A stretch of DNA of 64,000 nucleotides, from the NCBI GenBank assembly GCA_902586925.1, contig CACIJE010000001.1, positions 270,104 to 334,103 on the forward strand. The letters run 5' to 3'. Shown here piece by piece: positions 9,206-53,144 of this stretch. The notes under the pieces are model-generated. The model had not been told where the DNA came from, ran no database searches, and saw only the letters and a list, made by a program, of their open reading frames with translations. A program made the position numbers and the translations under genes. Numbering within the stretch: the stretch's first letter is position 1; every line of letters begins with the position of its first letter. This DNA is from an uncultured SAR86 cluster bacterium. Lineage in GTDB: Bacteria; Pseudomonadota; Gammaproteobacteria; Magnimaribacterales; D2472.

Positions 9206-10212
9206 TATTCGTTTGAAACCCTCACGTAGTCTGCTAATTTTTGTGCAGCTTGTCCGTTATTCATACAATCAAATGCCATTTCTACGCCATCACTTATAGA
9301 GTTAACTACACTTGCTACATATAAAGCAGCCCCGCTATTTAATGCGATCATGTCTTGCACAGCAGAACTCTCTCCATTAAATGCGCTATTCACAAGTAAA
9401 AGACTTTCGTCCGAAGAATTCGCAGTAATTTGATCAAATGAAGATAGGTTTAGTCCATAATCTTTAGGAGAAATTTTATATTCACTAATATTATTGTCTT
9501 TTAATTCTGAAACAATAGTTTCTGAACAAATTGAAATCTCATCAAGACCATCATCTCCGTGAACAATCATGACATGTTTCATATCAAGATTTTTTGCAAC
9601 ATTAGAAAACATTTTTACAAGCTGTTCATCATAAACTCCTAGGACCTGTTTTTTTGCACTGCATGGATTGGTATGCGGTCCTAACAAATTAAAAATAGTT
9701 TTTTCAGCAATTTTTTGTCTAACTGGCATCACAAACTTCATCGCTTCATGATGAAGTGGTGCAAATAAAAATACGAATCCAACTTTATCAAAAATTGATA
9801 TTAGTTTTTCTCTTTCATGATTAATGTTTGCACCTGACTGTGCAAGAAAGTCTGCACTACCAGATTTGCTAGAAATTGCTTTATTACCGTGCTTAGTGAT
9901 TTTAGCTCCTGCAGCTGCAGCAACAAAAGATGAGGCTGTTGAGCAATTAAAAGTATGTAAGCCTGTTCCACCTGTTCCACAAGTATCAATATGTGAACCA
10001 TCACCTATGTCAAATTTTAAAGATTTTTCTTTCATGACAATTGCAGCAGCAGTAACTTCAGTCTCTGATACACCCTTTTCATTTAATCCAATTAGAAAAG
10101 ATTCAATATCGTCATCATCAGACACATCAGACATTATTAAATTAATGGCTTCTTGCATCTCGTTAAGAGTTAGATCTTCCTTATTATTTATTTTGTTAAT
10201 AAAGTCCTTCAT
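9205..10212 (-). CDS. trpD: Anthranilate phosphoribosyltransferase
   Basis: DTCGTGGTG, KHGNKAISSKSGSAD, TIFNLLGP, VHGDDGLDEIS. Confidence 0.97.
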   Translation of the reverse strand: MKDFINKINNKEDLTLNEMQEAINLIMSDVSDDDDIESFLIGLNEKGVSETEVTAAAIVMKEKSLKFDIGDGSHIDTCGTGGTGLHTFNCSTASSFVAAAAGAKITKHGNKAISSKSGSADFLAQSGANINHEREKLISIFDKVGFVFLFAPLHHEAMKFVMPVRQKIAEKTIFNLLGPHTNPCSAKKQVLGVYDEQLVKMFSNVAKNLDMKHVMIVHGDDGLDEISICSETIVSELKDNNISEYKISPKDYGLNLSSFDQITANSSDESLLLVNSAFNGESSAVQDMIALNSGAALYVASVVNSISDGVEMAFDCMNNGQAAQKLADYVRVSNE

Positions 10213-10775
10213 ATTTTCTTAATAAAGTTTTCTATAAGCTTTGTGCCATTATTTGTATCAATTGATTCAGGATGAAACTGAACACCATAAATTGGTCTAT
10301 TGATATGTTCAACCGCCATGATTATCTCCTTATCATCACTTAAAGTTGCAGTGACATTAAGTTCGCTCGGTAAAGTTTTCATATCAATTATTAGGCTATG
10401 GTATCTGACAACATTATAAGATTTTTCAATTTCACTAAAAATTAAGCTTCCATCATGATCGATGCTTGAAGTTTTTCCATGAAAAACTTCTGGTGCCTTT
10501 ATGACATTTCCACCAAAAGCTGCACCAATTGCTTGATGTCCTAAACAAACTCCAAGAATTGGAACTTCTGCAGTCTTAATAAGTTCAACTGATATACCTG
10601 CTTCTTTTGGGGTGCATGGGCCAGGTGATATTACAATCTTGCTTGGATTAATATCCATAATTTCAGATGCGGACATTTCATCATTCCTTATGACTTTGAT
10701 GTCTTTTTCAAACTCACCAATATAATGGACTAGGTTATAGGTAAAACTATCATAATTATCTATAACAATGATCAC
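10209..10775 (-). CDS. trpG: Anthranilate synthase component II (glutamine amidotransferase)
   Basis: IDNYDSFTYNL, ISPGPCTP, LGVCLGHQ, RYHSL, GVQFHPES; lies between trpE and trpD. Confidence 0.96.
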   Translation of the reverse strand: MIIVIDNYDSFTYNLVHYIGEFEKDIKVIRNDEMSASEIMDINPSKIVISPGPCTPKEAGISVELIKTAEVPILGVCLGHQAIGAAFGGNVIKAPEVFHGKTSSIDHDGSLIFSEIEKSYNVVRYHSLIIDMKTLPSELNVTATLSDDKEIIMAVEHINRPIYGVQFHPESIDTNNGTKLIENFIKKI

Positions 10776-12238
10776 GAAATCATCTCCATTGCGTCTAAAA
10801 ATACTTTAGATTTTTGGACACATTCCTCCCATTCCGTTTCTGGATCTGAATCGGCAACTATGCCTGCTCCGGCTCCAACGTGAATTTTGTTATCCCTTAT
10901 TACAGCTGTTCTTATGGCAATCGCAGTATCAATATTACCATTCCAAGATATATAACCTATTGCACCTCCATAAATACCTCTTGAACTTGGCTCAAGCTCA
11001 TTAATTATTTCCATTGCTCTTATTTTTGGAGCGCCTGAAAGAGTTCCAGCTGGCAAAGTAGCTTTAAGAGCATCAGTAAAATTTAATCCCTTAGATAATT
11101 TGCCTACTACGTTTGATACTATATGCATGACATGGGAATATCTTTCGATCACCATTTTTTCAGTCAGTTTCACGCTACCAATTTCAGAAACTCTTCCAAC
11201 ATCATTTCTTCCAAGATCTATAAGCATAAGATGCTCAGCTAACTCTTTTGGATCATTTAATAAATCTTTCTCATTATTTTTATCCTCTTCTTCGTTTGCA
11301 CCTCTTTTTCTCGTGCCTGCAATTGGTCTGAGAGTAATATTGCTATCTTCTAATCTAACCAATATTTCAGGTGAAGATCCGACCACCTCACATTCATCAA
11401 GGTTGAGGTAATACATATATGGTGATGGGTTTATCTGTCTTAGGGCTGAATATAATTTAAATGAATCGCCGTCGAAGGATTGATAAAAATCTTGTGCTAG
11501 TACAACCTGCATTACATCACCTTCTTTTATATATTCTTTAATTTTATTCACAGACGACATGTACTCATTTTTTGTAAAATTTGATTTAAATTCTAATTGC
11601 CCTGTAGTATTTGAATATGAAGTTTCTTCAAGTTCTCCAGAATGATCAATGCTGTTTTGAATCTCCTTAATGATTTCCAAAGCATCTTCATATGATGTCT
11701 TTTGAGGGTTTGCATTATAAACAGCTTGAATACTATTATTAAAATTGTCGTAAACAATTATTTTTTCAGACTTTACCAAATAGATATCAGGCATATGAAC
11801 ATCAAATTTTGAGTCTTTTCTTTGAAGAGCATTAATTTTATTTTCAGCATACTTAGCACTTTCATACGCAAAAAAACCGACATATCCTCCATAAAATCGT
11901 GGCATACCATCTAAAATTGGGGTCTTGTATTCAGCAATTAATTTATTTAGTTCATTAAGGGGCTCTTTGCATTCAATTAGATTAGTTCCCAGAGCTGTTT
12001 TAATTTCAATTTTATTATCTGATACTTTTATTGAGTCTTGGCAATCCAATCCGATTATTGAATACTGAGCCCATTTTTCTCCACCTTCGATGGATTCAAG
12101 CAAGAAATTATTTTTTTTATTCTTAATTCTTGAAAAAACTTTTATGGGTGAATCCAAGTCTTTCTCAATAGTTTTAATCAATGGAACAATGTTAAATCCA
12201 TTTTCTGCAAATTCTATATATTCTTCTTTACTTATCAT
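10772..12238 (-). CDS. trpE: Anthranilate synthase component I
   Basis: LLESIEGGEKWAQYS, NPSPYMYY, RPIAGTRKRG, AEHLMLIDLGRNDVGRV, PAGTLSGAPKIRAM. Confidence 0.97.
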   Translation of the reverse strand: MISKEEYIEFAENGFNIVPLIKTIEKDLDSPIKVFSRIKNKKNNFLLESIEGGEKWAQYSIIGLDCQDSIKVSDNKIEIKTALGTNLIECKEPLNELNKLIAEYKTPILDGMPRFYGGYVGFFAYESAKYAENKINALQRKDSKFDVHMPDIYLVKSEKIIVYDNFNNSIQAVYNANPQKTSYEDALEIIKEIQNSIDHSGELEETSYSNTTGQLEFKSNFTKNEYMSSVNKIKEYIKEGDVMQVVLAQDFYQSFDGDSFKLYSALRQINPSPYMYYLNLDECEVVGSSPEILVRLEDSNITLRPIAGTRKRGANEEEDKNNEKDLLNDPKELAEHLMLIDLGRNDVGRVSEIGSVKLTEKMVIERYSHVMHIVSNVVGKLSKGLNFTDALKATLPAGTLSGAPKIRAMEIINELEPSSRGIYGGAIGYISWNGNIDTAIAIRTAVIRDNKIHVGAGAGIVADSDPETEWEECVQKSKVFLDAMEMIS

Positions 12239-12677
12239 TAGAAAATATTTTTTTAATCTCTATTGAATCTCCAATATTTATATTCTTTTCTTCAAACCAT
12301 CCAGAATTTACTTCAAGAGCATATTTAGCTGCCTTAATTGAACAAACAGAATCTTTTGAAAACGGAACCATATCATATATTTCTATTATTTTTCCTCTAA
12401 TATCAATGTATGCAACGCTTAATGGAACATAAGTGTTTTTCATCCACATGCATTGTTTTCTCTCATATGGCCATATAAATAACATTCCATAATCATTTGG
12501 AATTGATCTTCTGTTCATAAGTCCTTTCTTTCTATCTTCGTATTTTGAAACAATCTCTATGTCAAATAGATATTCTTGAATATCTACAACCTTTGATGCA
12601 TGAAGATTGCTTACAAAAAGTAAAAATATAAAGTATTTAAACAATTTTTGAACGAAGTTCAGATATTGTTTGCTCAT
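12228..12677 (-). CDS. DUF192 family protein
   Basis: [36 protein letters not shown]. The start may instead be TTG at 12644, giving a smaller overlap with rpe. Confidence 0.85.
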
Positions 12678-13305
12678 AATTTTCAGTATTGAATATAGCT
12701 GAGCCTGCTACAAATGTATCAGCGCCTGCCTCAGACGCTAGACCAATAGTATCCTTGTTTATTCCACCATCTACCTCCAAGCGGACATCTTTTCCAGATT
12801 CATCAATCATTTTCCTAACTTGAGCAATTTTTTCAAGAGAGCTATGAATAAACGATTGGCCACCAAAACCAGGATTAACACTCATAATTAATACCAAATC
12901 TAAATCCTCAAGAACACTTTCTAACGTGTGAAGTGGAGTTGCAGGATTATAAACAAGTCCAGCCTTACAGCCTTTATCTTTTATTGCATGAATTGACCTA
13001 TGAATATGTTTGGTTGCTTCAGGATGAAAACTAATTAAGTTTGCTCCAGCATCTATAAAGCTTTGGGCCAATTCGTCCACTGGATCAATCATTAAATGAA
13101 CATCAATAAATTCTTTTATGCCGTATTCTCTAAGAGCTTTGCAAACCATTGGTCCGATAGTGAGATTAGGAACATAGTGATTATCCATAACATCAAAATG
13201 AACCCAATCAGCTCCTGCATCAAGGACATTACGTACCTCTTCTCCAAGTCTTGCGAAATCTGAAGCTAAGATAGACGGTGCAATTATATTTTTTTGGTCA
13301 CTCAT
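12637..13305 (-). CDS. rpe: Ribulose-phosphate 3-epimerase
   Basis: [49 protein letters not shown]. Confidence 0.98.
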
Positions 13306-13308
13306 AAC

Positions 13309-13980
13309 TTAATTTTGATCATTATATAGGCTATTAGCAAGTTTTAAACGTTCATGCGTTCCAACATCTATCCATAAATCATTAGATTTGTGAGCCGATA
13401 CATCTCCATTATTAAGATAATTTGGAAGTACAGTATCCCAAATATTAAAAGAACCCGAACTGAAGTTTTTTTCTTTAAATATGATTGGATTTATAATAGA
13501 GATACCACTCCAAGTTAAATCATTTAACTGATCTAAAACAACAATATTATTATCATTGATACAAAAGTCTCCTTGCTGATTATGAGATGGATTCGGAACT
13601 CCAATTAAATGAGCAGCATCAACTTCTTTTGGTATATTTTTAATATCAATTTTATGAAAAATATCAGAATTCATAACTAAGAAATTTTCATCACCTAATA
13701 AATCTAAAGCATTCAAAATACCTCCACCAGTTCCTAAAGGCTTATCTTCTTTTGAAAACTCAATATTAATATTGGAGAATTTTTCTTTTACATGATTTTC
13801 AATCATAAAACCAAGATGTGAAATATTAATAACGAATTCTGTAAAGTCATTTTTAATTAAATATTCAATATTATGTTGTATTAAAGTTTTATTACCTACT
13901 CTTAAGAGCGGTTTGGGGATTTCTTTAGTTAAGGGTAATAATCTTTTGCCGTACCCAGCAGCTAAAATCATTACTTTCAT
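13309..13980 (-). CDS. murU: N-acetylmuramate alpha-1-phosphate uridylyltransferase
   Basis: MILAAGYGKRLLPLT, KPLL, LGTGGGI, WIDVGTHERL; directly downstream of amgK-like kinase. Confidence 0.85.
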   Translation of the reverse strand: MKVMILAAGYGKRLLPLTKEIPKPLLRVGNKTLIQHNIEYLIKNDFTEFVINISHLGFMIENHVKEKFSNINIEFSKEDKPLGTGGGILNALDLLGDENFLVMNSDIFHKIDIKNIPKEVDAAHLIGVPNPSHNQQGDFCINDNNIVVLDQLNDLTWSGISIINPIIFKEKNFSSGSFNIWDTVLPNYLNNGDVSAHKSNDLWIDVGTHERLKLANSLYNDQN

Positions 13981-14933
13981 AATTGCTCAACAGTTTTCAG
14001 TAAAAGTGGTTGAACTTCTTGTTCTAAAAAAAGTTTAGAGGAATGTTCTTCGGGAATCATCTTTATTAGATTCTTTAAAATTAAGGGCATATCTATTAAT
14101 CTAAAACTTCTATCTTTTGTTAAATATAAATCTGATAAAGTTCCAAGGATTCTAAGATTTCTTTGTATGCAGCCCCATCTAGTATATTCAAAACATGCGT
14201 CATCTGAATATTCTGATTTAACATTTGTTGAGAAAAAATTTAAAAAACTCTTAATGTTGGAAATATCTGCTTCTAAATAGTGATCTACTAAGATTCCTGC
14301 CATATCAATACCAATTGGTCCCTTTTTCATATCTTGATAATCGATAACTGTTAAATGATTATTCTTATTAAGAACTAAGTTACGTCTTTCAAAATCAAAA
14401 TGACAATTAACCCAAGGATGTTGATAAAGCTTATCAATGGTGATTGATATTAAGTCATTAATAGATTCATCTGATGCAATATTTAAAAATTTTTGACAAA
14501 AAACTTTATCAAATAAGCTCATCTGATTGATTAAGTCTTCTTTTGAAAATTCTTCCAGATTCTCAATTTCAGATTCTTGTAATTCAATCAAAAGATTTAA
14601 TGAGCTTTCTAATAGCTCTTTCTTATTATCGTCATTAAATATTGATATCAAGTCTTTGTCTCCCAAATCCTCCTGGATGGTGACTCCGGCTTGTTTATCG
14701 TAATGAATAATATCTACACCTGAAATATGATTTTTTTTAAGCTCGTTAGATATATTAATAAAATTTTCGTGATCGCCTTCGTTTGGGTCAAGGTAGCACA
14801 AAATTATTGTTTCTTTGGCATCATTAATTATTCGCCAATACTCTCTTCCACTAGCTTCTCGTTTTAATGGAATTACCTCTAGAGGGTTAAAGTTAAATTT
14901 TTTACTTAAATTTATTACTTCTTCTTCTTTCAA
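13977..14933 (-). CDS. amgK: Anomeric MurNAc/GlcNAc kinase (APH-like phosphotransferase)
   Basis: EASGREYWR, EDLGD, HFDFERRNL, VIDYQDMKKGP, QRNLRILGTLSDL; amgK-murU pairing near lptD; TTG start. Confidence 0.8.
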   Translation of the reverse strand: MKEEEVINLSKKFNFNPLEVIPLKREASGREYWRIINDAKETIILCYLDPNEGDHENFINISNELKKNHISGVDIIHYDKQAGVTIQEDLGDKDLISIFNDDNKKELLESSLNLLIELQESEIENLEEFSKEDLINQMSLFDKVFCQKFLNIASDESINDLISITIDKLYQHPWVNCHFDFERRNLVLNKNNHLTVIDYQDMKKGPIGIDMAGILVDHYLEADISNIKSFLNFFSTNVKSEYSDDACFEYTRWGCIQRNLRILGTLSDLYLTKDRSFRLIDMPLILKNLIKMIPEEHSSKLFLEQEVQPLLLKTVEQL

Positions 14934-43371: not shown

Positions 43372-43794
43372 ATGAGTAAATGTTTGCCAAAAACAAGTTA
43401 TCAACTTGCAGTTTGCGAAACCAATTTTTTAAGATTAAAGAATTTGCTTCAAAATTTTTCAAAAAATAAATACTTGTTTGAAACAATTAATCCAGACACT
43501 TCTTCTAATCCAATATCCTTTTGTGTATTACATAGGACACGTCATACATTAATTATTGAAGCAAAACAAAAAATTAAATTAAAAAAAATAGATGATCTTA
43601 TTATTAGGATACAAATATCTTTAGATGCTAGGCTAGCAGAAGTTTTATCGTTTCAAGGAGAAAGAGCTGTTCCTTATTTTATGAAAGTGCTAAAGATACA
43701 ATCAAAAGATGAAAAAATACAACAAAATAAATTCTTAACAGAATGGCTAGAGAACATATTTTCGAATGGTATTAATCCTCATGTAAAAATTTGA
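43372..43794 (+). CDS. DUF1249 (YqiB-like) protein
   Basis: CETNFLRL, DARLAEV, DEKIQQNKFLTEWL; adjacent to yqiA-like esterase. Confidence 0.75.
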   Translation: MSKCLPKTSYQLAVCETNFLRLKNLLQNFSKNKYLFETINPDTSSNPISFCVLHRTRHTLIIEAKQKIKLKKIDDLIIRIQISLDARLAEVLSFQGERAVPYFMKVLKIQSKDEKIQQNKFLTEWLENIFSNGINPHVKI

Positions 43795-44369
43795 TGATAA
43801 ATACAATTTTATACTTTCATGGCTTTGCATCATCTTCAGATTCAGATAAAGCAAAAATTATAAAAAGTCATATTTCTAAAATATCAAAAAAAATAAAAGT
43901 ACTTACGCCAGATCTCAGTAATGACTTCATAGAAGCAAATAATCAAATAAATAAACTTATCAATGAAAATAAAAAAGATTTTGCATTCGTAGGTAGTTCT
44001 CTCGGTGGTTATTTTGCAAGTTGTTTTGGAAGTGTTAACAACTCAAAAGTGATCTTAATAAATCCAGCAATACCGCCGTTAGAGGGTTTTGAACAATATC
44101 TTGGTGAAAATGAAAATTATTCAACTGGAGAAAAATTTAATATTACCAAAAAAGATATAGAATTTTTAAGATCTCTTGTTATTAACAAATATATTAACCA
44201 AAAAAATACATTAGTCTTTTTAGAGTCGGGAGACGAAGTCCTTAATTATGTTGAAGCTGCTAAATACTATAGGGGGTCAAATATTGATATAACCTTTGGT
44301 GGCAATCATTCATATGAATCTATTACTAAAAAGTTACAAAAAATCGTTAAATTTATAGAAATTCAATAA
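43791..44369 (+). CDS. yqiA: YqiA/YcfP family alpha/beta esterase
   Basis: LYFHGFASS, GSSLGGY, INPA, GDEVLNY, GGNHSY. Confidence 0.88.
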   Translation: MMINTILYFHGFASSSDSDKAKIIKSHISKISKKIKVLTPDLSNDFIEANNQINKLINENKKDFAFVGSSLGGYFASCFGSVNNSKVILINPAIPPLEGFEQYLGENENYSTGEKFNITKKDIEFLRSLVINKYINQKNTLVFLESGDEVLNYVEAAKYYRGSNIDITFGGNHSYESITKKLQKIVKFIEIQ

Positions 44370-44370
44370 A

Positions 44371-44392
44371 TTGAACAAAAATTGAACAAAAA
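44371..44392 (+). repeat. Tandem 11-bp direct repeat upstream of glutamine synthetase
   Basis: TTGAACAAAAA twice in tandem (44371-44381, 44382-44392). Confidence 0.85.
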
Positions 44393-44401
44393 ACTTTATT
44401 T

Positions 44402-44440
44402 TGCACATAATTAATGCATAATATATTCATAATTTGTGCA
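44402..44440. promoter_or_regulatory. Two putative NtrC-binding boxes
   Basis: TGCACATAATTAATGCA (44402-44418) and TATTCATAATTTGTGCA (44424-44440) versus the 17-bp consensus TGCAC-N7-GTGCA; ntrBC lies directly downstream. Confidence 0.6.
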
Positions 44441-44504
44441 TTTTTGAAATTTCAGCTAGCACAAAAATTTAATCACAATTACAAATTTATTTTAGGAGAG
44501 ATAA

Positions 44505-45473
44505 ATGAAAACATACGAATATATATGGCTAGATGGATATCAGCCTGAGCCAATGATGAGAAGTAAAGTTAAAGCTACTGATGATGAAACTCCTCCAGAC
44601 TGGTCTTTTGATGGTTCTTCAACACAACAAGCTGAAGGTGGAAGTTCTGATTGTTTACTTATACCAGTTCAAACATATTCAAATCCAAATGGTCATGATC
44701 TTGTGATGACTCAAGTTCAGTCAGCTGATCATACTACTCATCCATCTAATTTCAGAGCTGCAGCTGCTGAGGTTGTTTCTGATGAGTGGTGGTTTGGTTT
44801 TGAACAAGAGTTCTTTTTTACTGATCCTCAAACAGGTGAACCATTAGGATGGGAAGATGGTGAACCAAGAGAACAAGGTGAATACTACTGTGGAGTTGGT
44901 GCAAGTAACGTAGTTGGCAGAGAAATTTCTGATGCACATCTTCAAGCATGTTTAGATCTCGGTATTACGCTCACAGGTACTAATGCAGAGGTCGCATTAG
45001 GTCAGTGGGAGTACCAATGTTTTGGAAAGGGGATCAAGGCCGCTGATGACCTTTGGGTGAGTCGTTATTTACTTTACAAAATTGCAGAAGAATTTGGTGT
45101 TGGTGTGAACATTCATCCAAAACCAAAAACTGGTGATTGGAACGGCTCAGGCATGCATACAAACTTTTCAAATGAGGCAATGAGGACAGCAGGTTCTGAA
45201 GAATTATTTAGTTCTATGTGTGACAAACTTGGTGAAGTTCATGATGCTGGAATAGCTGCATATGGCTCTGATAATGACATGAGATTAACTGGTTTACATG
45301 AAACACAAAAAATAACAGAATTCTCATATGGCGTCAGCGACAGAGGCGCAAGCATAAGAATACCTGTTTATACAGTTGAACATGACTGGAACGGCTATTT
45401 AGAAGATAGAAGGCCTGCATCAAATGCAGATCCATATAAGATTTTAGCTCATATCGTAGGAACGCTAACTTAA
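44505..45473 (+). CDS. glnII: Glutamine synthetase type II
   Basis: 322 aa; EYIWLDG, WSFDGSST, WFGFEQE, QGEYYCGVGA, GTNAEVALGQWEYQ, GDWNGSGMHTNFS, RLTGLHET, DRGASIRIP, EDRRPASNADPY; SD AGGAG. Confidence 0.92.
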   Translation: MKTYEYIWLDGYQPEPMMRSKVKATDDETPPDWSFDGSSTQQAEGGSSDCLLIPVQTYSNPNGHDLVMTQVQSADHTTHPSNFRAAAAEVVSDEWWFGFEQEFFFTDPQTGEPLGWEDGEPREQGEYYCGVGASNVVGREISDAHLQACLDLGITLTGTNAEVALGQWEYQCFGKGIKAADDLWVSRYLLYKIAEEFGVGVNIHPKPKTGDWNGSGMHTNFSNEAMRTAGSEELFSSMCDKLGEVHDAGIAAYGSDNDMRLTGLHETQKITEFSYGVSDRGASIRIPVYTVEHDWNGYLEDRRPASNADPYKILAHIVGTLT

Positions 45474-45481
45474 TTTTTTTC

Positions 45482-45517
45482 AACTTACTCTGCCCTGTTA
45501 AAAACAGGGTAGAAGTT
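45482..45517 (+). terminator. Hairpin between glnII and ntrB
   Basis: CTGCCCTGTT-AAA-AACAGGGTAG stem extended by AACTT/AAGTT; only a weak U tail, so it may be a partial terminator or an mRNA stabiliser. Confidence 0.55.
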
Positions 45518-45523
45518 ATCTAA

Positions 45524-46600
45524 ATGGAAATTGCCAAAGCAGAGTTATCTTTCTTAAACCAGCTTACCTCTGAAATTATCATTCTTGATGAAAATCTCAA
45601 AATAGTGTGGTTGAATTATTCTGCATTAAATAAAGGTTGGATCATTGATAATAAAAAAAGTTTGATAACTGATCAGCTATCTGAAGTTACAAACGCTTCT
45701 TTAGTTGGTCTATTTAAAAATGCAATAAGAAAAAATCTCTCACAAACCAAGAGAGATTTTGAACTAATTAATTCTAAACTTGAAAAAAGAGAGATCGATG
45801 TAACAGTGAGGTGGAGTAATTCATACGAATGTCTAATTGTTGAAATTTTGTGTGTTGACAATCTCAATAAAATGGTTGATTCGTCAAAAAGTTTTTCAAT
45901 ACAAAAGATAGCAGCAAATTTAGCAAGAACCCTAGCTCATGAAGTTAAGAACCCCCTGTCTGGTATTAAAGGAAGTGCTCAAATTCTTAGAAAAAAGTTA
46001 AAAGATGATTTTTCTTCAAAATTTCTCAAAATAATTATTGATGAAACTGATAGATTAAATAGTATTGTTACAAAAATTCTTACTCCACCTTCAAAACCTA
46101 ATCTTGCGCCTTTTAATATTCATTCTGCTCTTGAAAAAGTTTATGCATTAGCTGATGCAGATAAAAATGAAAAAATTAAACTTATAAGAGACTACGATCC
46201 TAGCATCCCTGAAATAAATGGTGATGAGAACTTATTTGTTCAAGCAATTCTTAATATTGTAAAAAATGCACAGCAGGCAATTGAAAATACAAAAGATCCA
46301 TCAATTACTATTAAATCAAGAATCCAATTTGGTAAACCTATAAATGGGACAACATATCCAACAATATGCTCTATAGAAATTAAAGATAATGGTCCTGGCA
46401 TACCTAATGAACTTCATGATCAGGTTTTTTTTCCAATGGTCTCTGTGAAAGAGAACGGATCTGGATTAGGCCTAACTATTGCTCAGGATATTATAAGGAT
46501 TCATGGTGGAGGAATAGTGTTTTCATCTGATCCAGGAAATACAGTTTTTTCAATTCAAATTCCTATTAAAGCAGATAATAAGGAGTCTCAAATTGCATAG
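45524..46600 (+). CDS. glnL: Nitrogen regulation sensor histidine kinase NtrB
   Basis: PAS-like N-terminus, LAHEVKNPLSGIKGSAQIL, DYDPSIP, NIVKNA, DNGPGIP, GSGLGL. Confidence 0.95.
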   Translation: MEIAKAELSFLNQLTSEIIILDENLKIVWLNYSALNKGWIIDNKKSLITDQLSEVTNASLVGLFKNAIRKNLSQTKRDFELINSKLEKREIDVTVRWSNSYECLIVEILCVDNLNKMVDSSKSFSIQKIAANLARTLAHEVKNPLSGIKGSAQILRKKLKDDFSSKFLKIIIDETDRLNSIVTKILTPPSKPNLAPFNIHSALEKVYALADADKNEKIKLIRDYDPSIPEINGDENLFVQAILNIVKNAQQAIENTKDPSITIKSRIQFGKPINGTTYPTICSIEIKDNGPGIPNELHDQVFFPMVSVKENGSGLGLTIAQDIIRIHGGGIVFSSDPGNTVFSIQIPIKADNKESQIA

Positions 46601-47969
46601 TGTATGGATTGCAGATGATGACCAAGCAATTAGACTTGTCCTTGAGGAGAGTCTCTCAAGTTCAGGGTTTCAAACAGAAAGCTTTTCAAACGGCGAAGAC
46701 TTAATAAAAAAACTTGAGACTAATCAGCCAGACTTAATAATTACCGATGTACAAATGCCAGGAATGCTAGGTTTTGATCTAATGAAACATATAAATAATA
46801 ATTTTGAGAACATCCCAGTTATTATTATGACCGCTTTTGCTGATATGCAAACAGCTGTCGAGTCATTTGGTGGTGGTGCATTTGAATATTTACCCAAGCC
46901 ATTTGATCTAGAGGAAGCAACAGAAATTGTTGTAAGAGCTTTGGAGGATAAACCAAAAACTAAAGGTCTAAAAAAAGATACAAAGCTTGATATAGTAGGT
47001 GAATCACAAGCAATGCAGAATGTTTATAGAGCTATTGGCAAGCTATCAAGTACCATCGCAACTGTATTAATTCAAGGAGAATCTGGAACTGGTAAGGAAT
47101 TAATAGCAAAATCACTTCACAAAAATAGTCCTAGAAATGATATGCCATTTATAGCACTTAATATGGCTGATATTCCAAAAGAACTTGTCGAGTCTGAGCT
47201 TTTTGGACACGAGAAAGGTTCTTTTACTGGAGCTGTAGAAAAAAGAATTGGCAGATTTGAGCAAGCAAATGGCGGGACTTTATTTTTAGATGAAATTGGA
47301 GATATGCCTTTAGACTCTCAAACACGTCTTCTAAGAGTGCTATCAAATAAAGAATTTTACAGAGTTGGTGGAGATAAACCTATAAAAGTGGATGTTAGAA
47401 TTGTTGCAGCTACTCACCAAAATCTTAATAATCTAGTATCACAAAATAAATTTAGAGAAGATCTTTTTTACAGGTTGAATGTGATTAAAATTGAAGTTCC
47501 TCCTCTTAGAAATAGAAAAGATGACATTAAAGAACTTTCTAGGTTCTTTCTTAAAAATTACTCAGATTCACTTGATGAAGATCTTAGGGTGATTTCAGAT
47601 GAAGCAATGAATTTACTTGAAAAGTTTGATTGGCCAGGAAATGTTAGACAACTTGAAAATGTATGCTATTGGTTAACGCTAATGTCGCCATCTCAAAATA
47701 TAAAATCTCAAGATTTACCAACTGAAGTTAAAGAATTTGAAGTTACTGATATCCCATCATCCTCTTGGGAAGAAGGAATGCAAAATTGGCTTAAAAACGT
47801 TTCAATGAATATCGATTCTGGTCTTTCTGAGATAGCCATAACAAAAATTGAAAAAATGCTCATTAAAACTGCTCTTGAAAGATCAAATGGTAAAAAAAAT
47901 GATGCAGCTCAGATCTTGGGTTGGGGTAGAAATACTCTTACAAAAAAAATGAAAGACCATGGGATTTAA
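46593..47969 (+). CDS. glnG: Nitrogen regulation response regulator NtrC
   Basis: Receiver (ITDVQMPG), AAA+ ([42 protein letters not shown]), Fis-type HTH (LGWGRNTL); TTG start with AAGGAG SD. Confidence 0.96.
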
Positions 47970-48385
47970 ACTAATGGTAAATTACTCATTTTCCATTCAT
48001 TAATACCACCTTTTAATATTAAAATCTTCTCAATTCCTTCTTTTTTTAGAGTTTCACCAGCATTGGTAGATGCGCCTCCAGTTTCACATACCAAAACAAT
48101 AGATTTATCAGTTTTTACTAATTCATTTGATCGTCTTGATATATCTTTTGCGGGAACATTAATTGATGATGTTATATGGCCAGAATTAAAAGTATCAGAA
48201 TCTCTTAGATCAACAATCAATGCAGAGTCATTATTAGATAGACTTATTAAGTGTTGGCATGATATTTTCTTTCCACCTTTTTTTGCGTTTGAAATCAAGA
48301 AAAGAATTACCAGGACTATTAAGGGTAAAGATAAGTAATAACGTTCAATTAAAAAATTAATTATTTCCATCTGTATATTATCCAT
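47966..48385 (-). CDS. Rhodanese-like membrane protein (YibN-like)
   Basis: N-terminal TM, IVDLRD..F.SGHI.SSINVP, LVCETG, LKGGINEW. Confidence 0.88.
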   Translation of the reverse strand: MDNIQMEIINFLIERYYLSLPLIVLVILFLISNAKKGGKKISCQHLISLSNNDSALIVDLRDSDTFNSGHITSSINVPAKDISRRSNELVKTDKSIVLVCETGGASTNAGETLKKEGIEKILILKGGINEWKMSNLPLV

Positions 48386-50406: not shown

Positions 50407-53010
50407 ATGAGCGATAATTCTAATTCAAAATTTCCGTCTGAAGCTGAGGTTGTTATTGTTGGTGTAGGAGGAATTGTTGGATCTATGTTGGCCTATTGGT
50501 TAGCAGAACTTGGACAAAAAAATATTGTTGGGCTTGAGAAATCAACTATTATTCCTTCTGATATTGCTTCTACTGCTCATGCATCAGATTTTGTGTATAA
50601 CACGACACATGACAAATTAGGTTGTTGGACGACTGCATTCAGTAGAAAATTTTACGAAGATAATGGATTCTTTTTAAAAAAAGGTGGCCTAGAGATCTGC
50701 CGAAAAGATGACGATGAGCGATGGGAAGAACTTAAACGAAAAGTTGCATCAGGTAAAGCATTTGGCACGAATGTTAAATTAATATCTGCTGCTGAGGCAG
50801 TTGAGAAATTTCCATTACTTGAGGAAGAATCTTTAAAGGGAGCAATGTGGGATCCTGATGCAGGTCTTGTAGTTCCGAGATCACAAGAGGTTGTGAATTT
50901 TGCAGTTGAGAGTGCTAAAGAAAAAGGATCATTGAAAACTTTTACTAACACCCCTGCTACTGGATTTGAAACAGAAAATGGCAAAATTGTTGCAGTTAAA
51001 ACTGACAAAGGAATAATCAAAACTAAAAAAGTTGTTATTGCCTCAGGAATTTGGGGGCCTTTAATGGGAGATATGGTGGGTGTTCGAGTTCCTTTAATGC
51101 CTCTGGAACATCCACTTTTATTTTTCGGACCATATGAAGATATTCAGGAGACAAATGAACTATTGGTCTATCCTCTGCTAAGAGATCAAGGTAATTCAGC
51201 CTATGTAAGGGATACTGGAAAATTACATGGTGGGATGCTCGAATGGGGTTTTTATGAAGACAAGAATCCCAGATTAGTTGATCCTAAAGATATAGGAAAT
51301 CCAGATAAGACAATGTTATCTGATTCAATGAGGTATTTAGAGTTAGAAGAAATTGCAGAGCCTTTGGAAAAAGCATTTGAAACAACACCAATTCTCAGTG
51401 AATTAGGTTGGGATGAAAAAAGTTCATTTAATGGGCTTTTATCTGTAACAGCTGATGCAGGTTCTTTAATTGGTGAAAGTCCAGAGGTTAGAGGGTTTTG
51501 GTTATGTGAAGCTGTTTGGGTTAAAGATGGACCGGGTTGTGCCAGATTATGTGCAGAAGCTATGGTTAATGGTAAAACTCAAGTAGATATGCATTCTTTT
51601 GACATATCAAGATTCTATCCACATCAAAAAGAAAAAGATTTTGTAAAGACAAGAGCATACGAAAATTCTCAAACTATTTATACGCCTGCTGTTCACCCAA
51701 GAGAGCCATATGTTACTCAAAGAGAAATGTTTGTCAGTCCTTTCTATGAAAGGGAAAAAGAGCTTGGTGGTCATTTCGAAAACGAAGTTGCAGGTTGGGA
51801 GCGAGCTCTTGCTTATACATCTAATAGAGAAAAAATTAAACAGTATTTTAAAGACGTGCCATCAAGAGAAAATGAATGGGATACTCGTCATGTACCCTAT
51901 GATGTAGCTAATGCCGAACATTTAGCTATGAGTGATTCAGTTGGTATGATCAACTTGTCTCACTTCCCTATTATGGATATCAAAGGTCCAGATGCCGAAC
52001 GTATGTTGGAATTTCTTTCAGTTGCCAAAGTTGGAGGTAATACTCCTGAAGGTAAAGTAACTTATACAAATTTTTTAGATGAAGATGGTGGAGTTCATGC
52101 TGATCTTACTATTTCACGTCTTGGGTCTGATAGTTACAGAGTCGTAACCGGTGGTGCTGATGGAAATCGTGACTGGGTTACTCTGCGCAATTATAGGGAT
52201 GATAGTGGATTAAATGCAGACATAGATATTAGAACTCATGACATTGCGACTATAGGATTATGGGGGCCAAAAGCTGTTAATGCTTTAAGTAATTTTATAG
52301 ACTCCAACCAAATTGATATAAAAAATTTTCCTTTTGCCACAGCAAAGAACTTAACTCTTAACTTATCTGGTGGTAAAAAAGTTGATGTTTGGGCAGCAAG
52401 AATTTCATATGTTGGTGAATGTGGATGGGAAATTTACTTCAATAACAATAAAGAAGATGGTTTGGCTCTATATGATTCACTCCTTGAGGTTGGAGTGGTT
52501 CCAGTTGGTATTGAAACATATGCAAATAGCAGGCGACTAGAAAAAAGCTTCAGGCTTCAGGGAGCTGATCTTGAGACAGAATACAACTCCGTTGAAGCAG
52601 CCATACAAAGATCACTAGTTAAAGAAGCAGATTTTCATGGTAAAGCTGCTCATTTATCTCATCGTGAAGAGGATCCGTGTGCCATTCTATGTACTATGAC
52701 ATTAGATGATTTAAATGTATCAGGTATTACGAGATATCCTGTAGGTATCTGTCCAATTATTGATCCTGCCACCGGGGAGGTACCTATCGATAGCAAAGGA
52801 CGAAGATCTTATACAACAGGTATGTCCTACTGCCCTTCTATTAAAAAATTTGTTGCCATGAGTTATTTACCAAGAGAACTAGCTATTCAAGGTAAACAAC
52901 TACTTATTGAATACTTCAACGAAGATGGTGATGGAATTTATCCAATAACTGTTCAAATTGTTGGTAAGGGGTCTTTATATGATCCCAGTAATGAAAGAGT
53001 TCGATCGTAG
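50407..53010 (+). CDS. FAD-dependent oxidoreductase with GcvT-like folate-binding domain (dimethylglycine/sarcosine dehydrogenase-like)
   Basis: N-terminal Rossmann VVIVGVGGIVG, STAHA, PLRDQGNSAYVRD, GWERA, YTNFLDEDGGVHADLTI, RISYVGECGWEIY, RRLEKSFR. Confidence 0.88.
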   Translation: MSDNSNSKFPSEAEVVIVGVGGIVGSMLAYWLAELGQKNIVGLEKSTIIPSDIASTAHASDFVYNTTHDKLGCWTTAFSRKFYEDNGFFLKKGGLEICRKDDDERWEELKRKVASGKAFGTNVKLISAAEAVEKFPLLEEESLKGAMWDPDAGLVVPRSQEVVNFAVESAKEKGSLKTFTNTPATGFETENGKIVAVKTDKGIIKTKKVVIASGIWGPLMGDMVGVRVPLMPLEHPLLFFGPYEDIQETNELLVYPLLRDQGNSAYVRDTGKLHGGMLEWGFYEDKNPRLVDPKDIGNPDKTMLSDSMRYLELEEIAEPLEKAFETTPILSELGWDEKSSFNGLLSVTADAGSLIGESPEVRGFWLCEAVWVKDGPGCARLCAEAMVNGKTQVDMHSFDISRFYPHQKEKDFVKTRAYENSQTIYTPAVHPREPYVTQREMFVSPFYEREKELGGHFENEVAGWERALAYTSNREKIKQYFKDVPSRENEWDTRHVPYDVANAEHLAMSDSVGMINLSHFPIMDIKGPDAERMLEFLSVAKVGGNTPEGKVTYTNFLDEDGGVHADLTISRLGSDSYRVVTGGADGNRDWVTLRNYRDDSGLNADIDIRTHDIATIGLWGPKAVNALSNFIDSNQIDIKNFPFATAKNLTLNLSGGKKVDVWAARISYVGECGWEIYFNNNKEDGLALYDSLLEVGVVPVGIETYANSRRLEKSFRLQGADLETEYNSVEAAIQRSLVKEADFHGKAAHLSHREEDPCAILCTMTLDDLNVSGITRYPVGICPIIDPATGEVPIDSKGRRSYTTGMSYCPSIKKFVAMSYLPRELAIQGKQLLIEYFNEDGDGIYPITVQIVGKGSLYDPSNERVRS

Positions 53011-53068: not shown

Positions 53069-53144
53069 GCCCAGATAGCTCAGTTGGTAGAGCAAAGGAC
53101 TGAAAATCCTTGTGTCGGTGGTTCGATCCCACCTCTGGGCACCA
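53069..53144 (+). tRNA. tRNA-Phe (GAA)
   Basis: 76 nt; acceptor GCCCAGA/TCTGGGC, D-arm GCTC..GAGC, anticodon arm AAGGA-CTGAAAA-TCCTT, T-arm GGTGG-TTCGATC-CCACC, encoded CCA. Confidence 0.98.

Follow-up and report, generated by a model that had tools for sequence, protein, structure and literature searches.

Type II glutamine synthetase in the glnA position of the glnA-ntrB-ntrC locus of SAR86 bacteria: probable displacement of the type I enzyme and turnover of the control elements

Introduction

In the surface ocean, few heterotrophs are as abundant as SAR86 bacteria, and it is through glutamine synthetase that ammonium enters biomass. Which glutamine synthetase stands in front of ntrB and ntrC in these bacteria, how it came to stand there and how it is controlled are questions raised by a 64-kb stretch of SAR86 (Gammaproteobacteria) DNA on contig CACIJE010000001.1, taken from a genome of roughly 1.3 Mb and referred to below, at its full length, as the window. 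An earlier note, made from the sequence alone, had proposed that a 322-residue type II glutamine synthetase (GSII) fills the glnA slot of a glnA-ntrB-ntrC locus in place of the type I enzyme (GSI). We consider it likely that GSII is the working enzyme, probably the only one, and that its present state was reached through insertion, loss of GSI and later erosion of the promoter.

Identity and genomic position of the enzyme

The open reading frame at 44505..45473 (+) encodes an intact GSII of 322 residues with an ATG start. The protein contains both domains of the glutamine synthetase superfamily, the N-terminal beta-grasp domain (Pfam PF03951, Gln-synt_N, 34.7 bits against a cutoff of 33.4) and the C-terminal catalytic domain (PF00120, Gln-synt_C, 65.1 bits against a cutoff of 24). 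The best NCBIfam model was GlnII with 358 bits, followed at a distance by GSI (48 bits) and the type III enzyme, GSIII (40 bits). The GlnII match (NF041605) extends over model positions 5-328 of 333, and GSI models cover only portions of the catalytic core. Among solved structures, the closest was 4bax, a Streptomyces GSII decamer (E 3e-87, residues 5-320 against 7-333), and the next matches were the GSII enzymes of fly, yeast, maize and human. The top 16 structures were all GSII (E 1e-76 to 3e-87), while GSI structures gave E-values of 1e-8 or weaker. The alignment with 4bax is full-length with all catalytic motifs in common, but the similarity is moderate, and trimmed loops and termini make the window protein 22 residues shorter. 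The glnII of a Streptomyces plasmid, related to 4bax, is ~50% identical to the window protein. By homology to the solved decamers, the window enzyme is probably a decamer as well.

The catalytic motifs FDGSS, FEQEF, NAEVALGQWEYQ, KPKTGDWNGSGMHTNFS, RLTGLHE, RGASIRIP, and EDRRPASNADPY are present, so that the window matches 7/7 patterns and the motifs binding metal, ATP, glutamate, and ammonium are conserved. Six of the seven patterns were found in 204-205 of 205 clade members and the stricter KP...H.N.S pattern in 131. The chain aligns with GSII structures from end to end and has no adenylylation loop, the Tyr397 region being absent. Without this loop, GlnE would not govern the enzyme, whose activity would depend on transcription and on the levels of its substrates and products. 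Per subunit, GSII costs 420 nitrogen atoms and GSI 610, and both residues and nitrogen atoms are reduced by ~31%; the smaller subunit fits genome and proteome streamlining, without being proof of it.

One score counts against this assignment. The 358 bits lie under the NF041605 equivalog cutoff of 500, which is a naming threshold for one curated subset and no definition of the GSII class; the score therefore marks the marine clade as a divergent GSII subfamily. Since the same fold hosts other ligases such as PuuA, the low score might also be read as a sign that the protein is no glutamine synthetase in function, for example a gamma-glutamyl-amine ligase or a regulatory pseudo-enzyme. We regard this as most improbable, because every motif for metal, ATP, glutamate, and ammonium is conserved and the gene lies in a glnA slot from which GSI has demonstrably been lost, with the GS-GOGAT pathway otherwise reported complete in SAR86. 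It is also at odds with the control elements described below, NtrC sites before the window gene and glutamine riboswitches before its orthologues in SAR86 loci without ntrBC; a glutamine-sensing RNA 5' of the orthologous gene supports a glutamine-making role of the enzyme.

The genes of the locus are arranged as follows.

43791..44369, + strand: YqiA-like esterase (UPF0227; Pfam PF05728, E 1e-39), the left boundary gene and the left neighbour of GSII in most SAR86 loci
44494..44499, + strand: ribosome-binding site AGGAGA, read directly from the sequence; the GSII ATG follows six bases later
44505..45473, + strand: type II glutamine synthetase, 322 residues, every catalytic motif intact, transcribed in marine metatranscriptomes
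45524..46600, + strand: ntrB (NR-II histidine kinase), 358 residues (NF008293, 266 bits, cutoff 240)
46593..47969, + strand: ntrC (NR-I), 458 residues (TIGR01818, 638 bits, cutoff 559; Pfam domains)
47966..48385, - strand: rhodanese-domain protein, the right boundary gene, a conserved right neighbour with or without ntrBC

The order is thus that of glnA-ntrB-ntrC, with all three genes (44505..45473, 45524..46600, and 46593..47969) on the + strand, and the glutamine synthetase at the locus is GSII, not a GSI subject to GlnE. NtrC of the window consists of a receiver, a sigma-54 AAA+ domain (loop GSFTGA) and a Fis-type helix-turn-helix domain, and its gene overlaps ntrB by 8 nt. Family models and gene order therefore bear out the placing of GSII in the glnA slot, and Pfam, NCBIfam, structure matches, and RNA folding likewise agree with the earlier description of a 322-residue GSII immediately 5' of ntrBC with an intergenic hairpin.

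To place the locus among its relatives, one genome per species was scanned, and a close relative of the gene turned up in 499 of them. Among the 80 best, almost all were SAR86 single-cell or metagenome-assembled genomes, and all 80 loci were SAR86-type or carried the same gene. With the window proteins as tblastn queries, the common order was H+-PPase, SDF transporter, UbiC, UbiA, FemAB-like protein, DUF1249, YqiA, GSII, (NtrB, NtrC), rhodanese, GpmA, and MutY. This order holds even where the flanking SAR86 proteins are 30-50% identical to those of the window; GSII is there 90-93% identical. In metagenome contigs with a more divergent GSII (77-88%), the context was unchanged. GSII was found at the same locus in all sampled SAR86 lineages, and it is the control elements that vary.

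Displacement of the type I enzyme

A GSI query compared by tblastn with all of the ~90 fetched loci, cited here by L-numbers, gave one match in a SAR86-context locus, L018. It comes from an Arctic SAR86 metagenome-assembled genome (141-kb contig CASICS010000008.1; span 9989-14891) and has the order YqiA, GSII (9989..10969), a 14-nt gap, an intact 468-residue GSI (10984..12390), NtrB, NtrC, rhodanese, and GpmA. This is the sole sampled SAR86 locus with both enzymes, and the loop of its NtrC reads GAFAGA. The GSI is of gammaproteobacterial type (TIGR00653, 629 bits; PRK09469, 755 bits; PDB 9n4x, 717 bits) with a host-like G+C content at third codon positions (GC3) of 0.22, and its nearest relative in JGI metagenomes is 68% identical. 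At the position of the adenylylated Tyr397, it has Phe (DEDLFENPE against DKNLYDLPP in the reference).

In related loci, GSII and ntrB are separated by spacers of 97-208 nt, and these hold relics of the GSI 5' end on the correct strand and in the correct place. The spacer of L058 (10973-11073) encodes KMFDGSSLFGWKA, a GSI signature motif (E 4e-4), and that of L041 (10973-11180) a 34-residue match to GSI residues 1-34 (E 4e-4). In four further spacers, (D)VK*VDLRFT was found, with a Trp codon turned into an in-frame stop (L052, 10973-11074; L022, 9170-9272; L007, 10973-11077; L045, 10973-11075). Each of these four is weak when taken alone (E 0.1 to 2.7), and they share the strand and the GSI position. 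Weaker GSI matches were obtained with the spacers of L019 and L020. Shuffled controls gave 0 matches at E < 0.01 in 20 shuffles.

The intermediate state of L018 together with the relics points to a two-step history, an insertion of GSII upstream of GSI and a later decay of GSI. In this history, the SAR86 ancestor would have gained GSII through horizontal transfer, and the gene would have entered directly ahead of the native GSI, behind the control region of the original glnA with its NtrC enhancer sites and sigma-54 promoter, giving the order GSII-GSI-ntrB-ntrC. The redundant GSI may then have been deleted, apparently several times in separate lineages, leaving GSII in the glnA slot. Displacement in situ, as proposed earlier, thus stands with regard to the place, to which both L018 and the relics testify; a swap in one step does not, and gives way to insertion followed by GSI loss.

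Three observations weigh against this history. L018 is nested in a clade whose other members have no GSI, so that retention of GSI in L018 implies several independent losses. The relics back such repeated loss only inside the clade of L018. In the 50-nt spacer of the window itself, too short for detection, no GSI relic was detectable, and the two-step history of the window clade is consequently drawn from synteny. If presence is all that is counted, it would be more parsimonious to assume that GSI was replaced by GSII in a single step in the SAR86 ancestor and that the GSI of L018, the only intact one among ~90 loci, was re-inserted later. We consider this very unlikely in view of the GSI 5' relics, which occupy the same position and strand in several relatives of L018. 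The host-like GC3 of the L018 gene and the 68% identity of its best JGI metagenome relative also speak against re-insertion, and the gene lies 14 nt past GSII and abuts ntrB, the layout expected of the original glnA.

Glutamine synthetase complement of the genome

Whether GSII is the only glutamine synthetase of the cell depends on the remainder of the genome. None of the ten large open reading frames of the window scanned with Pfam encodes another glutamine synthetase, GlnE or GlnD, and tblastn with GSI and PII queries found no GSI-like or PII-like sequence elsewhere in the 64 kb. In Table S5 of Ramfelt et al. (2024; PMC11582366), COG0174 (glnA) has a mean of ~1 copy in Suzuki, CHAB-I-7 and RedeBAC7D11 and is present in 0.5-1.0 of the genomes of the genera concerned; Magnimaribacteraceae, including isolate HIMB1674, have ~2 copies. 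The G+C content of the window, 0.31-0.32, fits a Suzuki genome listed at 0.32 and not the 0.36-0.37 of Magnimaribacteraceae. As every sampled SAR86 genome has GSII at this locus, one COG0174 copy means no GSI, provided that GSII is counted there. The SAR86 pangenome supplements of the same paper have no entries for glnE, glnD, glnB, glnK or ntrC.

Several points limit this argument. Only ~64 kb of the ~1.3-Mb genome is in view, the family assignment of the window is made by G+C content alone, and the single-copy argument combines a published COG table with the assumption that GSII falls under COG0174. GSII might accordingly be an accessory enzyme, with the main assimilation of ammonium carried out by a GlnE-regulated GSI encoded elsewhere. 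Many bacteria hold both types, as do L018 and the alphaproteobacterial loci described below, and Magnimaribacteraceae average ~2 COG0174 genes. We nevertheless find an accessory role unlikely: COG0174 copy number is ~1 in three SAR86 families, the relics show the native GSI to have been lost from this same locus and not moved, the window has no GSI-, PII- or GlnE-like match, and even the GSI of L018 carries Phe at the adenylylation position. In this SAR86 cell, GSII probably serves as the working glutamine synthetase and, by the copy-number argument, is probably the sole one. The loss of post-translational control suggested in the earlier note would go along with an absence of glnE from this genome.

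Age of the acquisition and selection

The G+C content over the GSII gene is ~0.40, compared with 0.26-0.30 around it and 31-32% for the window overall. A recent acquisition, which such a bump might suggest, was rejected: GC3 of GSII is 0.23 (window mean 0.20, standard deviation 0.03), and codon positions 1 and 2 account for the extra G+C, as in the H+-PPase gene. A recent sweep was rejected in the same way as the cause of the 90-93% identity across deep SAR86 lineages. In all but the closest GSII pairs, four-fold degenerate sites have reached saturation (34-47% identity), with proteins ~78-93% identical, and this combination implies very strong purifying selection on GSII. The gene order shared across the sampled SAR86 lineages indicates that GSII has stood at this locus since before their radiation. 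By these sequence criteria, GSII is an old acquisition within SAR86.

For three loci, the GSII and flank phylogenies conflict: close flank relatives of L090 (the window clade), L091 (the L070 clade) and L081 (L039) carry GSII alleles on the opposite side of a 'core' clade with 96% bootstrap. For example, L090 and the window are 92% identical in HPPase and 74% in NtrC, but just 80% in GSII; L016 is 74% identical to the window in HPPase and 50% in NtrC, yet 92% in GSII. The conflict could be due to allele replacement within SAR86 or to a lineage-specific shift of rate.

Relatives and origin of the marine GSII clade

When sequences were clustered at 50% identity, the whole marine group formed a single cluster, and the next full-length relatives were 51-56% identical. 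In a neighbour-joining tree with 200 bootstraps, the SAR86, Marinimicrobia, and alphaproteobacterial copies formed one clade (100% bootstrap, stem 0.167). The alphaproteobacterial group includes seven genomes deposited as Pelagibacteraceae or Pelagibacterales, with GSII 90-91% identical to that of the window. Their loci, such as L023:9631-12457 (also L027, L035, L044, L061, L072, and L079), contain glnB (PII), GSII, and a 469-residue GSI without SAR86 synteny; by this gene order, the marine GSII was inserted into a glnB-glnA operon of alphaproteobacterial type. In the tree, these copies fall within a SAR86 clade (96% bootstrap), which suggests transfer from SAR86. To our knowledge, canonical Pelagibacter is without PII, and the Pelagibacterales label of these loci needs checking.

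The copies from Marinimicrobia (SAR406) are 325 residues long, 77-78% identical to the window protein, and directly follow a regulator of the AsnC/Lrp family. Their assignment is based on PriA on the same contig, which has named matches at 74%. The Marinimicrobia loci L084:9370-10978, L092:1578-3205, and L094:4572-6180 have neither NtrC motifs nor a riboswitch. Bootstraps bearing on the position of Marinimicrobia relative to SAR86, and thus on the direction of transfer between the two, are 70 or less. The resemblance to Flavobacteria suggested in the earlier note received no support, without being refuted: the nearest relatives outside SAR86 are Marinimicrobia and the Pelagibacterales-labelled alphaproteobacterium, and no named flavobacterial sequence was among those compared. 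A flavobacterial origin was rejected on the grounds that the 325-residue relatives at 77-78% identity are Marinimicrobia by their PriA.

The nearest outgroup family has GSII of 387-401 residues (L095:8001-9188 and L088:301-1296), 56% identical; the 295-kb contig that encodes it is phage-like and also has DUF3310, thioredoxin, a DNA methylase, and a large number of small unknown open reading frames. GSII is likewise known from jumbo phages with genomes of 635-735 kb, at 43-53% identity. Among plasmids, the copies listed come from rhizobia or Streptomyces and are ~50% identical; three further plasmid records show 60-80% identity, probably over a short stretch. A phage or plasmid vector was rejected at these identities of the nearest phage copies and the listed plasmid copies; the phage-like outgroup (56%) is too distant for a donor. 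P0122, the nearest cellular outgroup, occurs only on contigs of 1.4-2.9 kb, too short for context.

Vertical descent of GSII from an older gammaproteobacterial ancestor, with the likeness to Marinimicrobia and alphaproteobacteria explained by export from SAR86 only, would agree with the presence of GSII in some gammaproteobacteria (PMC2978018), with the fully host-like composition of the gene and with the nesting of alphaproteobacterial copies (96% bootstrap). It is hard to reconcile with the position of GSII, which has a classical glnA control region on its upstream side and, in L018, a gamma-type GSI on the other; this is the signature of an insertion into a glnA operon already in place. The long stem of the clade and the absence of any cellular relative above 56% point the same way, with the weight of this reduced by a sampling without outgroup gammaproteobacteria. 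Altogether, vertical descent seems improbable to us, and horizontal gain is preferred. A wider reading is plausible but remains more doubtful than likely: one conserved 'oligotroph' GSII lineage would have been passed among SAR86, SAR406/Marinimicrobia, and the Pelagibacterales-labelled alphaproteobacterium, would have joined and then displaced GSI in SAR86, and the Ntr/sigma-54 apparatus would then have been dismantled stepwise. The steps of dismantling that belong to this joint reading would be loss of the promoter, mutation of the GAFTGA loop, deletion of the NtrC ATPase domain, and loss of ntrBC. If the reading is true, heterotrophs of the surface ocean assimilate much of their ammonium via an uncharacterised small enzyme, and it becomes directly testable whether the advantage of GSII lies in its size and nitrogen economy, in its kinetics or in its independence of GlnE/PII.

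Control region of GSII in the window

The following elements were recognised between yqiA and GSII.

44382..44411, + strand: sigma-70-like promoter candidate TTGAAC-18-CATAAT, a consensus match only
44400..44427, + strand: sigma-70-like promoter candidate TTTGCA-16-TATATT, a consensus match only
44402..44418, no strand given: NtrC-type 17-mer TGCACATAATTAATGCA, one mismatch to TGCAC-N7-GTGCA and the only such 17-mer in the 64 kb
44436..44440, no strand given: second NtrC-type half-site GTGCA, 34 nt downstream of the first
44456..44474, + strand: decayed sigma-54 promoter remnant CTAGCACAAAAATTTAATC, in which the -24 GG reads AG and the -12 GC reads TA

The spacing of 32-34 nt between the two NtrC motifs is conserved across SAR86 clades, and across ~90 loci, the motif co-occurs with the genes for NtrB and NtrC. 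NtrC sites are thus predicted upstream of the window GSII from their sequence and distribution. No intact sigma-54 promoter accompanies them: the 135-nt upstream region (44370..44504) holds no GG-N10-GC, and no promoter of the type YGGYAY-N5-YTGCW was found on either strand of the whole 64-kb window, the 3' end of yqiA included. CTAGCACAAAAATTTAATC aligns with TGGCAT-N5-TTGCA of the sister lineages L054 and L024 and with AGGCAT-N5-TTGCA of L008. In the flank tree, the ten-member clade of the window has no promoter and its sister clade keeps it (bootstrap 77), which makes the loss in the window clade a derived state. L008, the nearest flank relative of the window, is absent from the flank tree and keeps AGGCAT-N5-TTGCA. 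The window is without a sigma-54-type promoter, although its full-length NtrC keeps the sigma-54 interaction domain. The Rfam scan of the window found no RF01739 aptamer, its only match being a tRNA, and hence no glutamine riboswitch.

The sigma-70-like candidates overlap the NtrC-like site in a glnAp1-like arrangement, and the TTTGCA...TAATAT layout is conserved in the clade of the window. Counting against them, such candidates are no more numerous than expected from shuffled sequence. It appears that the sigma-54 promoter of the window clade has eroded and that GSII is most likely transcribed from a sigma-70-type promoter overlapped by the NtrC site. NtrC would then modulate GSII, probably by repression as at E. 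coli glnAp1; both the use of this promoter and the direction of NtrC action are suggested by the layout. The claim that the locus keeps its Ntr context is thus right for the NtrC-type sites and ntrBC, which remain, and wrong for the sigma-54 promoter, which is present in sister lineages and decayed here.

Regulatory states across SAR86

SAR86 loci with ntrB have TGCAC/GTGCA motifs 5' of GSII, often as perfect TGCAC-N7-GTGCA palindromes ~32-34 nt apart. No such motifs were seen in the SAR86 loci without ntrBC or in the alphaproteobacterial and Marinimicrobia loci scanned. In ~30 sister SAR86 loci, a canonical sigma-54 promoter, TGGCAY-N5-TTGCW, lies 50-63 nt before the start codon, and the combination of NtrC sites and sigma-54 promoter is probably the ancestral SAR86 state. 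Altogether, four states were distinguished: NtrC sites with a sigma-54 promoter, NtrC sites only (as in the window), NtrC without its ATPase domain, and a riboswitch without ntrBC.

The loop of NtrC varies between loci. Six other loci with the GSFTGA variant found in the window still have the sigma-54 promoter, and none of the loci with GAFKGA (13 full-length loci) or GAFAGA (L018) has one. Five loci encode an NtrC of ~255 residues with a receiver and a Fis-type helix-turn-helix but no sigma-54 AAA+ domain, and they too have no sigma-54 promoter 5' of GSII (L020:12176-12946, also L019, L031, L063, and L080).

All 11 SAR86 loci without ntrBC have one RF01739 aptamer or two in tandem in the GSII leader (64-71 bits against a gathering score of 35), compared with 0 of 81 others, so that riboswitch and ntrBC are mutually exclusive over 92 loci. 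The aptamers were located at L006:9869-9921, L009:9798-9921, L039:9803-9910, and L081:9863-9916, and also in L010-L012, L014, L015, L082, and L083. On the flank tree, loci with the riboswitch fall into two clades, which are separate and well supported.

Intergenic hairpin and expression

45482..45517, + strand: G+C-rich hairpin in the gap between GSII and ntrB, an 11-bp stem with 4 outer pairs and no T-run after it

The hairpin folds with -17.3 kcal/mol within the 50-nt gap (z = -4.75), and 0 of 200 shuffles folded as well. A hairpin 3' of GSII was found in all 63 loci bearing ntrB (median -18.8 kcal/mol), with stem sequences that differ between clades, and most of those examined have no T-run. 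In L052, L022, L007, and L045, the hairpin is partly built of GSI relic sequence. The earlier note had called the hairpin retained. Its existence is beyond doubt in 63/63 loci; its descent from the old glnA-ntrB spacer is not demonstrable, and in one clade, the stem is GSI relic. The hairpin is likely an attenuator or 3' stabiliser that divides high GSII from low ntrBC expression, and would let only little transcription run on into ntrBC.

In four marine metatranscriptomes, contig depth reached the hundreds for GSII, ~12 for ntrB and 0 for yqiA. Word depth of contigs is a rough measure here, and the conserved GSII draws reads from a wider set of SAR86 lineages than the genes beside it. One RNA contig, corresponding to 45402..45563, starts in the 3' end of GSII, crosses the hairpin and reaches ntrB.

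Comparison with known systems

The SAR86 locus shares with the enterobacterial glnA-glnL-glnG (glnALG) operon, known in detail from E. coli, the order of glutamine synthetase, ntrB, and ntrC on one strand, upstream NtrC sites ~32-34 nt apart, a sigma-70-like promoter overlapping an NtrC site and a hairpin before ntrB. In many SAR86 clades, the sigma-54 promoter TGGCAY-N5-TTGCW lies downstream of the NtrC sites, as in the glnAp2 layout. It differs in having a 322-residue GSII instead of an adenylylatable GSI of ~469 residues, in the decay of the sigma-54 promoter of the window and in the progressive dismantling of the regulatory module over SAR86. In Rhizobium and Bradyrhizobium, glnII expresses GSII from an NtrC/sigma-54-dependent promoter, and bacterial GSII is thus under NtrC control there as well; the GSII of S. 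meliloti is ~49% identical to the window protein. The rhizobial gene, in contrast, belongs to another GSII clade and occupies a separate locus beside a GSI with GlnE/PII control, while the SAR86 gene stands in the glnA slot.

In the Global Ocean Sampling metagenomes, Yooseph et al. (2007; PMC1821046) found more than 1,000 GSII sequences, mostly bacterial and with conserved active sites, whose neighbours included PII, a histidine kinase, and the A/G-specific adenine glycosylase MutY; 19 adjacent GSI-GSII pairs were also reported. They called the reason for the many type II genes in ocean bacteria unclear and gave no organisms, displacement or regulation. The neighbours in that data set agree with the gene contexts seen here in SAR86, the alphaproteobacteria, and Marinimicrobia. 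With the SAR86 isolate HIMB1674 now in culture, the question raised in 2007 has become testable. Bacterial phyla having GSII were listed by Ghoshroy et al. (2010; PMC2978018). The glutamine riboswitch (glnA RNA, RF01739), known from cyanobacteria and marine metagenomes, was noted at its description for tandem arrangement and association with glutamine synthetase genes (PMC2864571), and its presence in SAR86 was mentioned in passing in 2025 (PMC12379486); here, it is located in leaders of SAR86 loci without ntrBC and is wanting in the window. SAR86 genome papers mention only 'glnA' or nothing; Dupont et al. (2012) mention neither glutamine nor NtrC. None of the papers listed in a search for SAR86 with NtrC, PII or sigma-54 concerned SAR86. 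Nor did we find a published description of the SAR86 assignment, of the displacement series with its intermediate and relics, of the clade shared with Marinimicrobia and the alphaproteobacterium or of the regulatory turnover, and these appear undescribed in the literature searched. The enzyme is of a known kind, and what appears new is the operon-level substitution and the regulatory variants.

The locus provides an unusually complete record of the displacement of an essential enzyme, with a two-enzyme intermediate, pseudogene relics, and an end state. One orthologous gene at one locus is found with four regulatory solutions, namely full NtrBC/sigma-54, NtrC sites only, a truncated NtrC, and a glutamine riboswitch. 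Where glnA serves as a marker gene in metagenomes or metatranscriptomes of the ocean, probes or models that are based on GSI would miss SAR86, the sampled Marinimicrobia, and their relatives.

Other features of the window

Downstream of the locus, at 50407..53010 (+) and directly before tRNA-Phe (53069..53144), the window encodes an 867-residue fusion of an FAD-dependent oxidoreductase (DAO, FAO_M) with an aminomethyltransferase folate-binding domain (GCV_T), which resembles dimethylglycine or sarcosine dehydrogenase.

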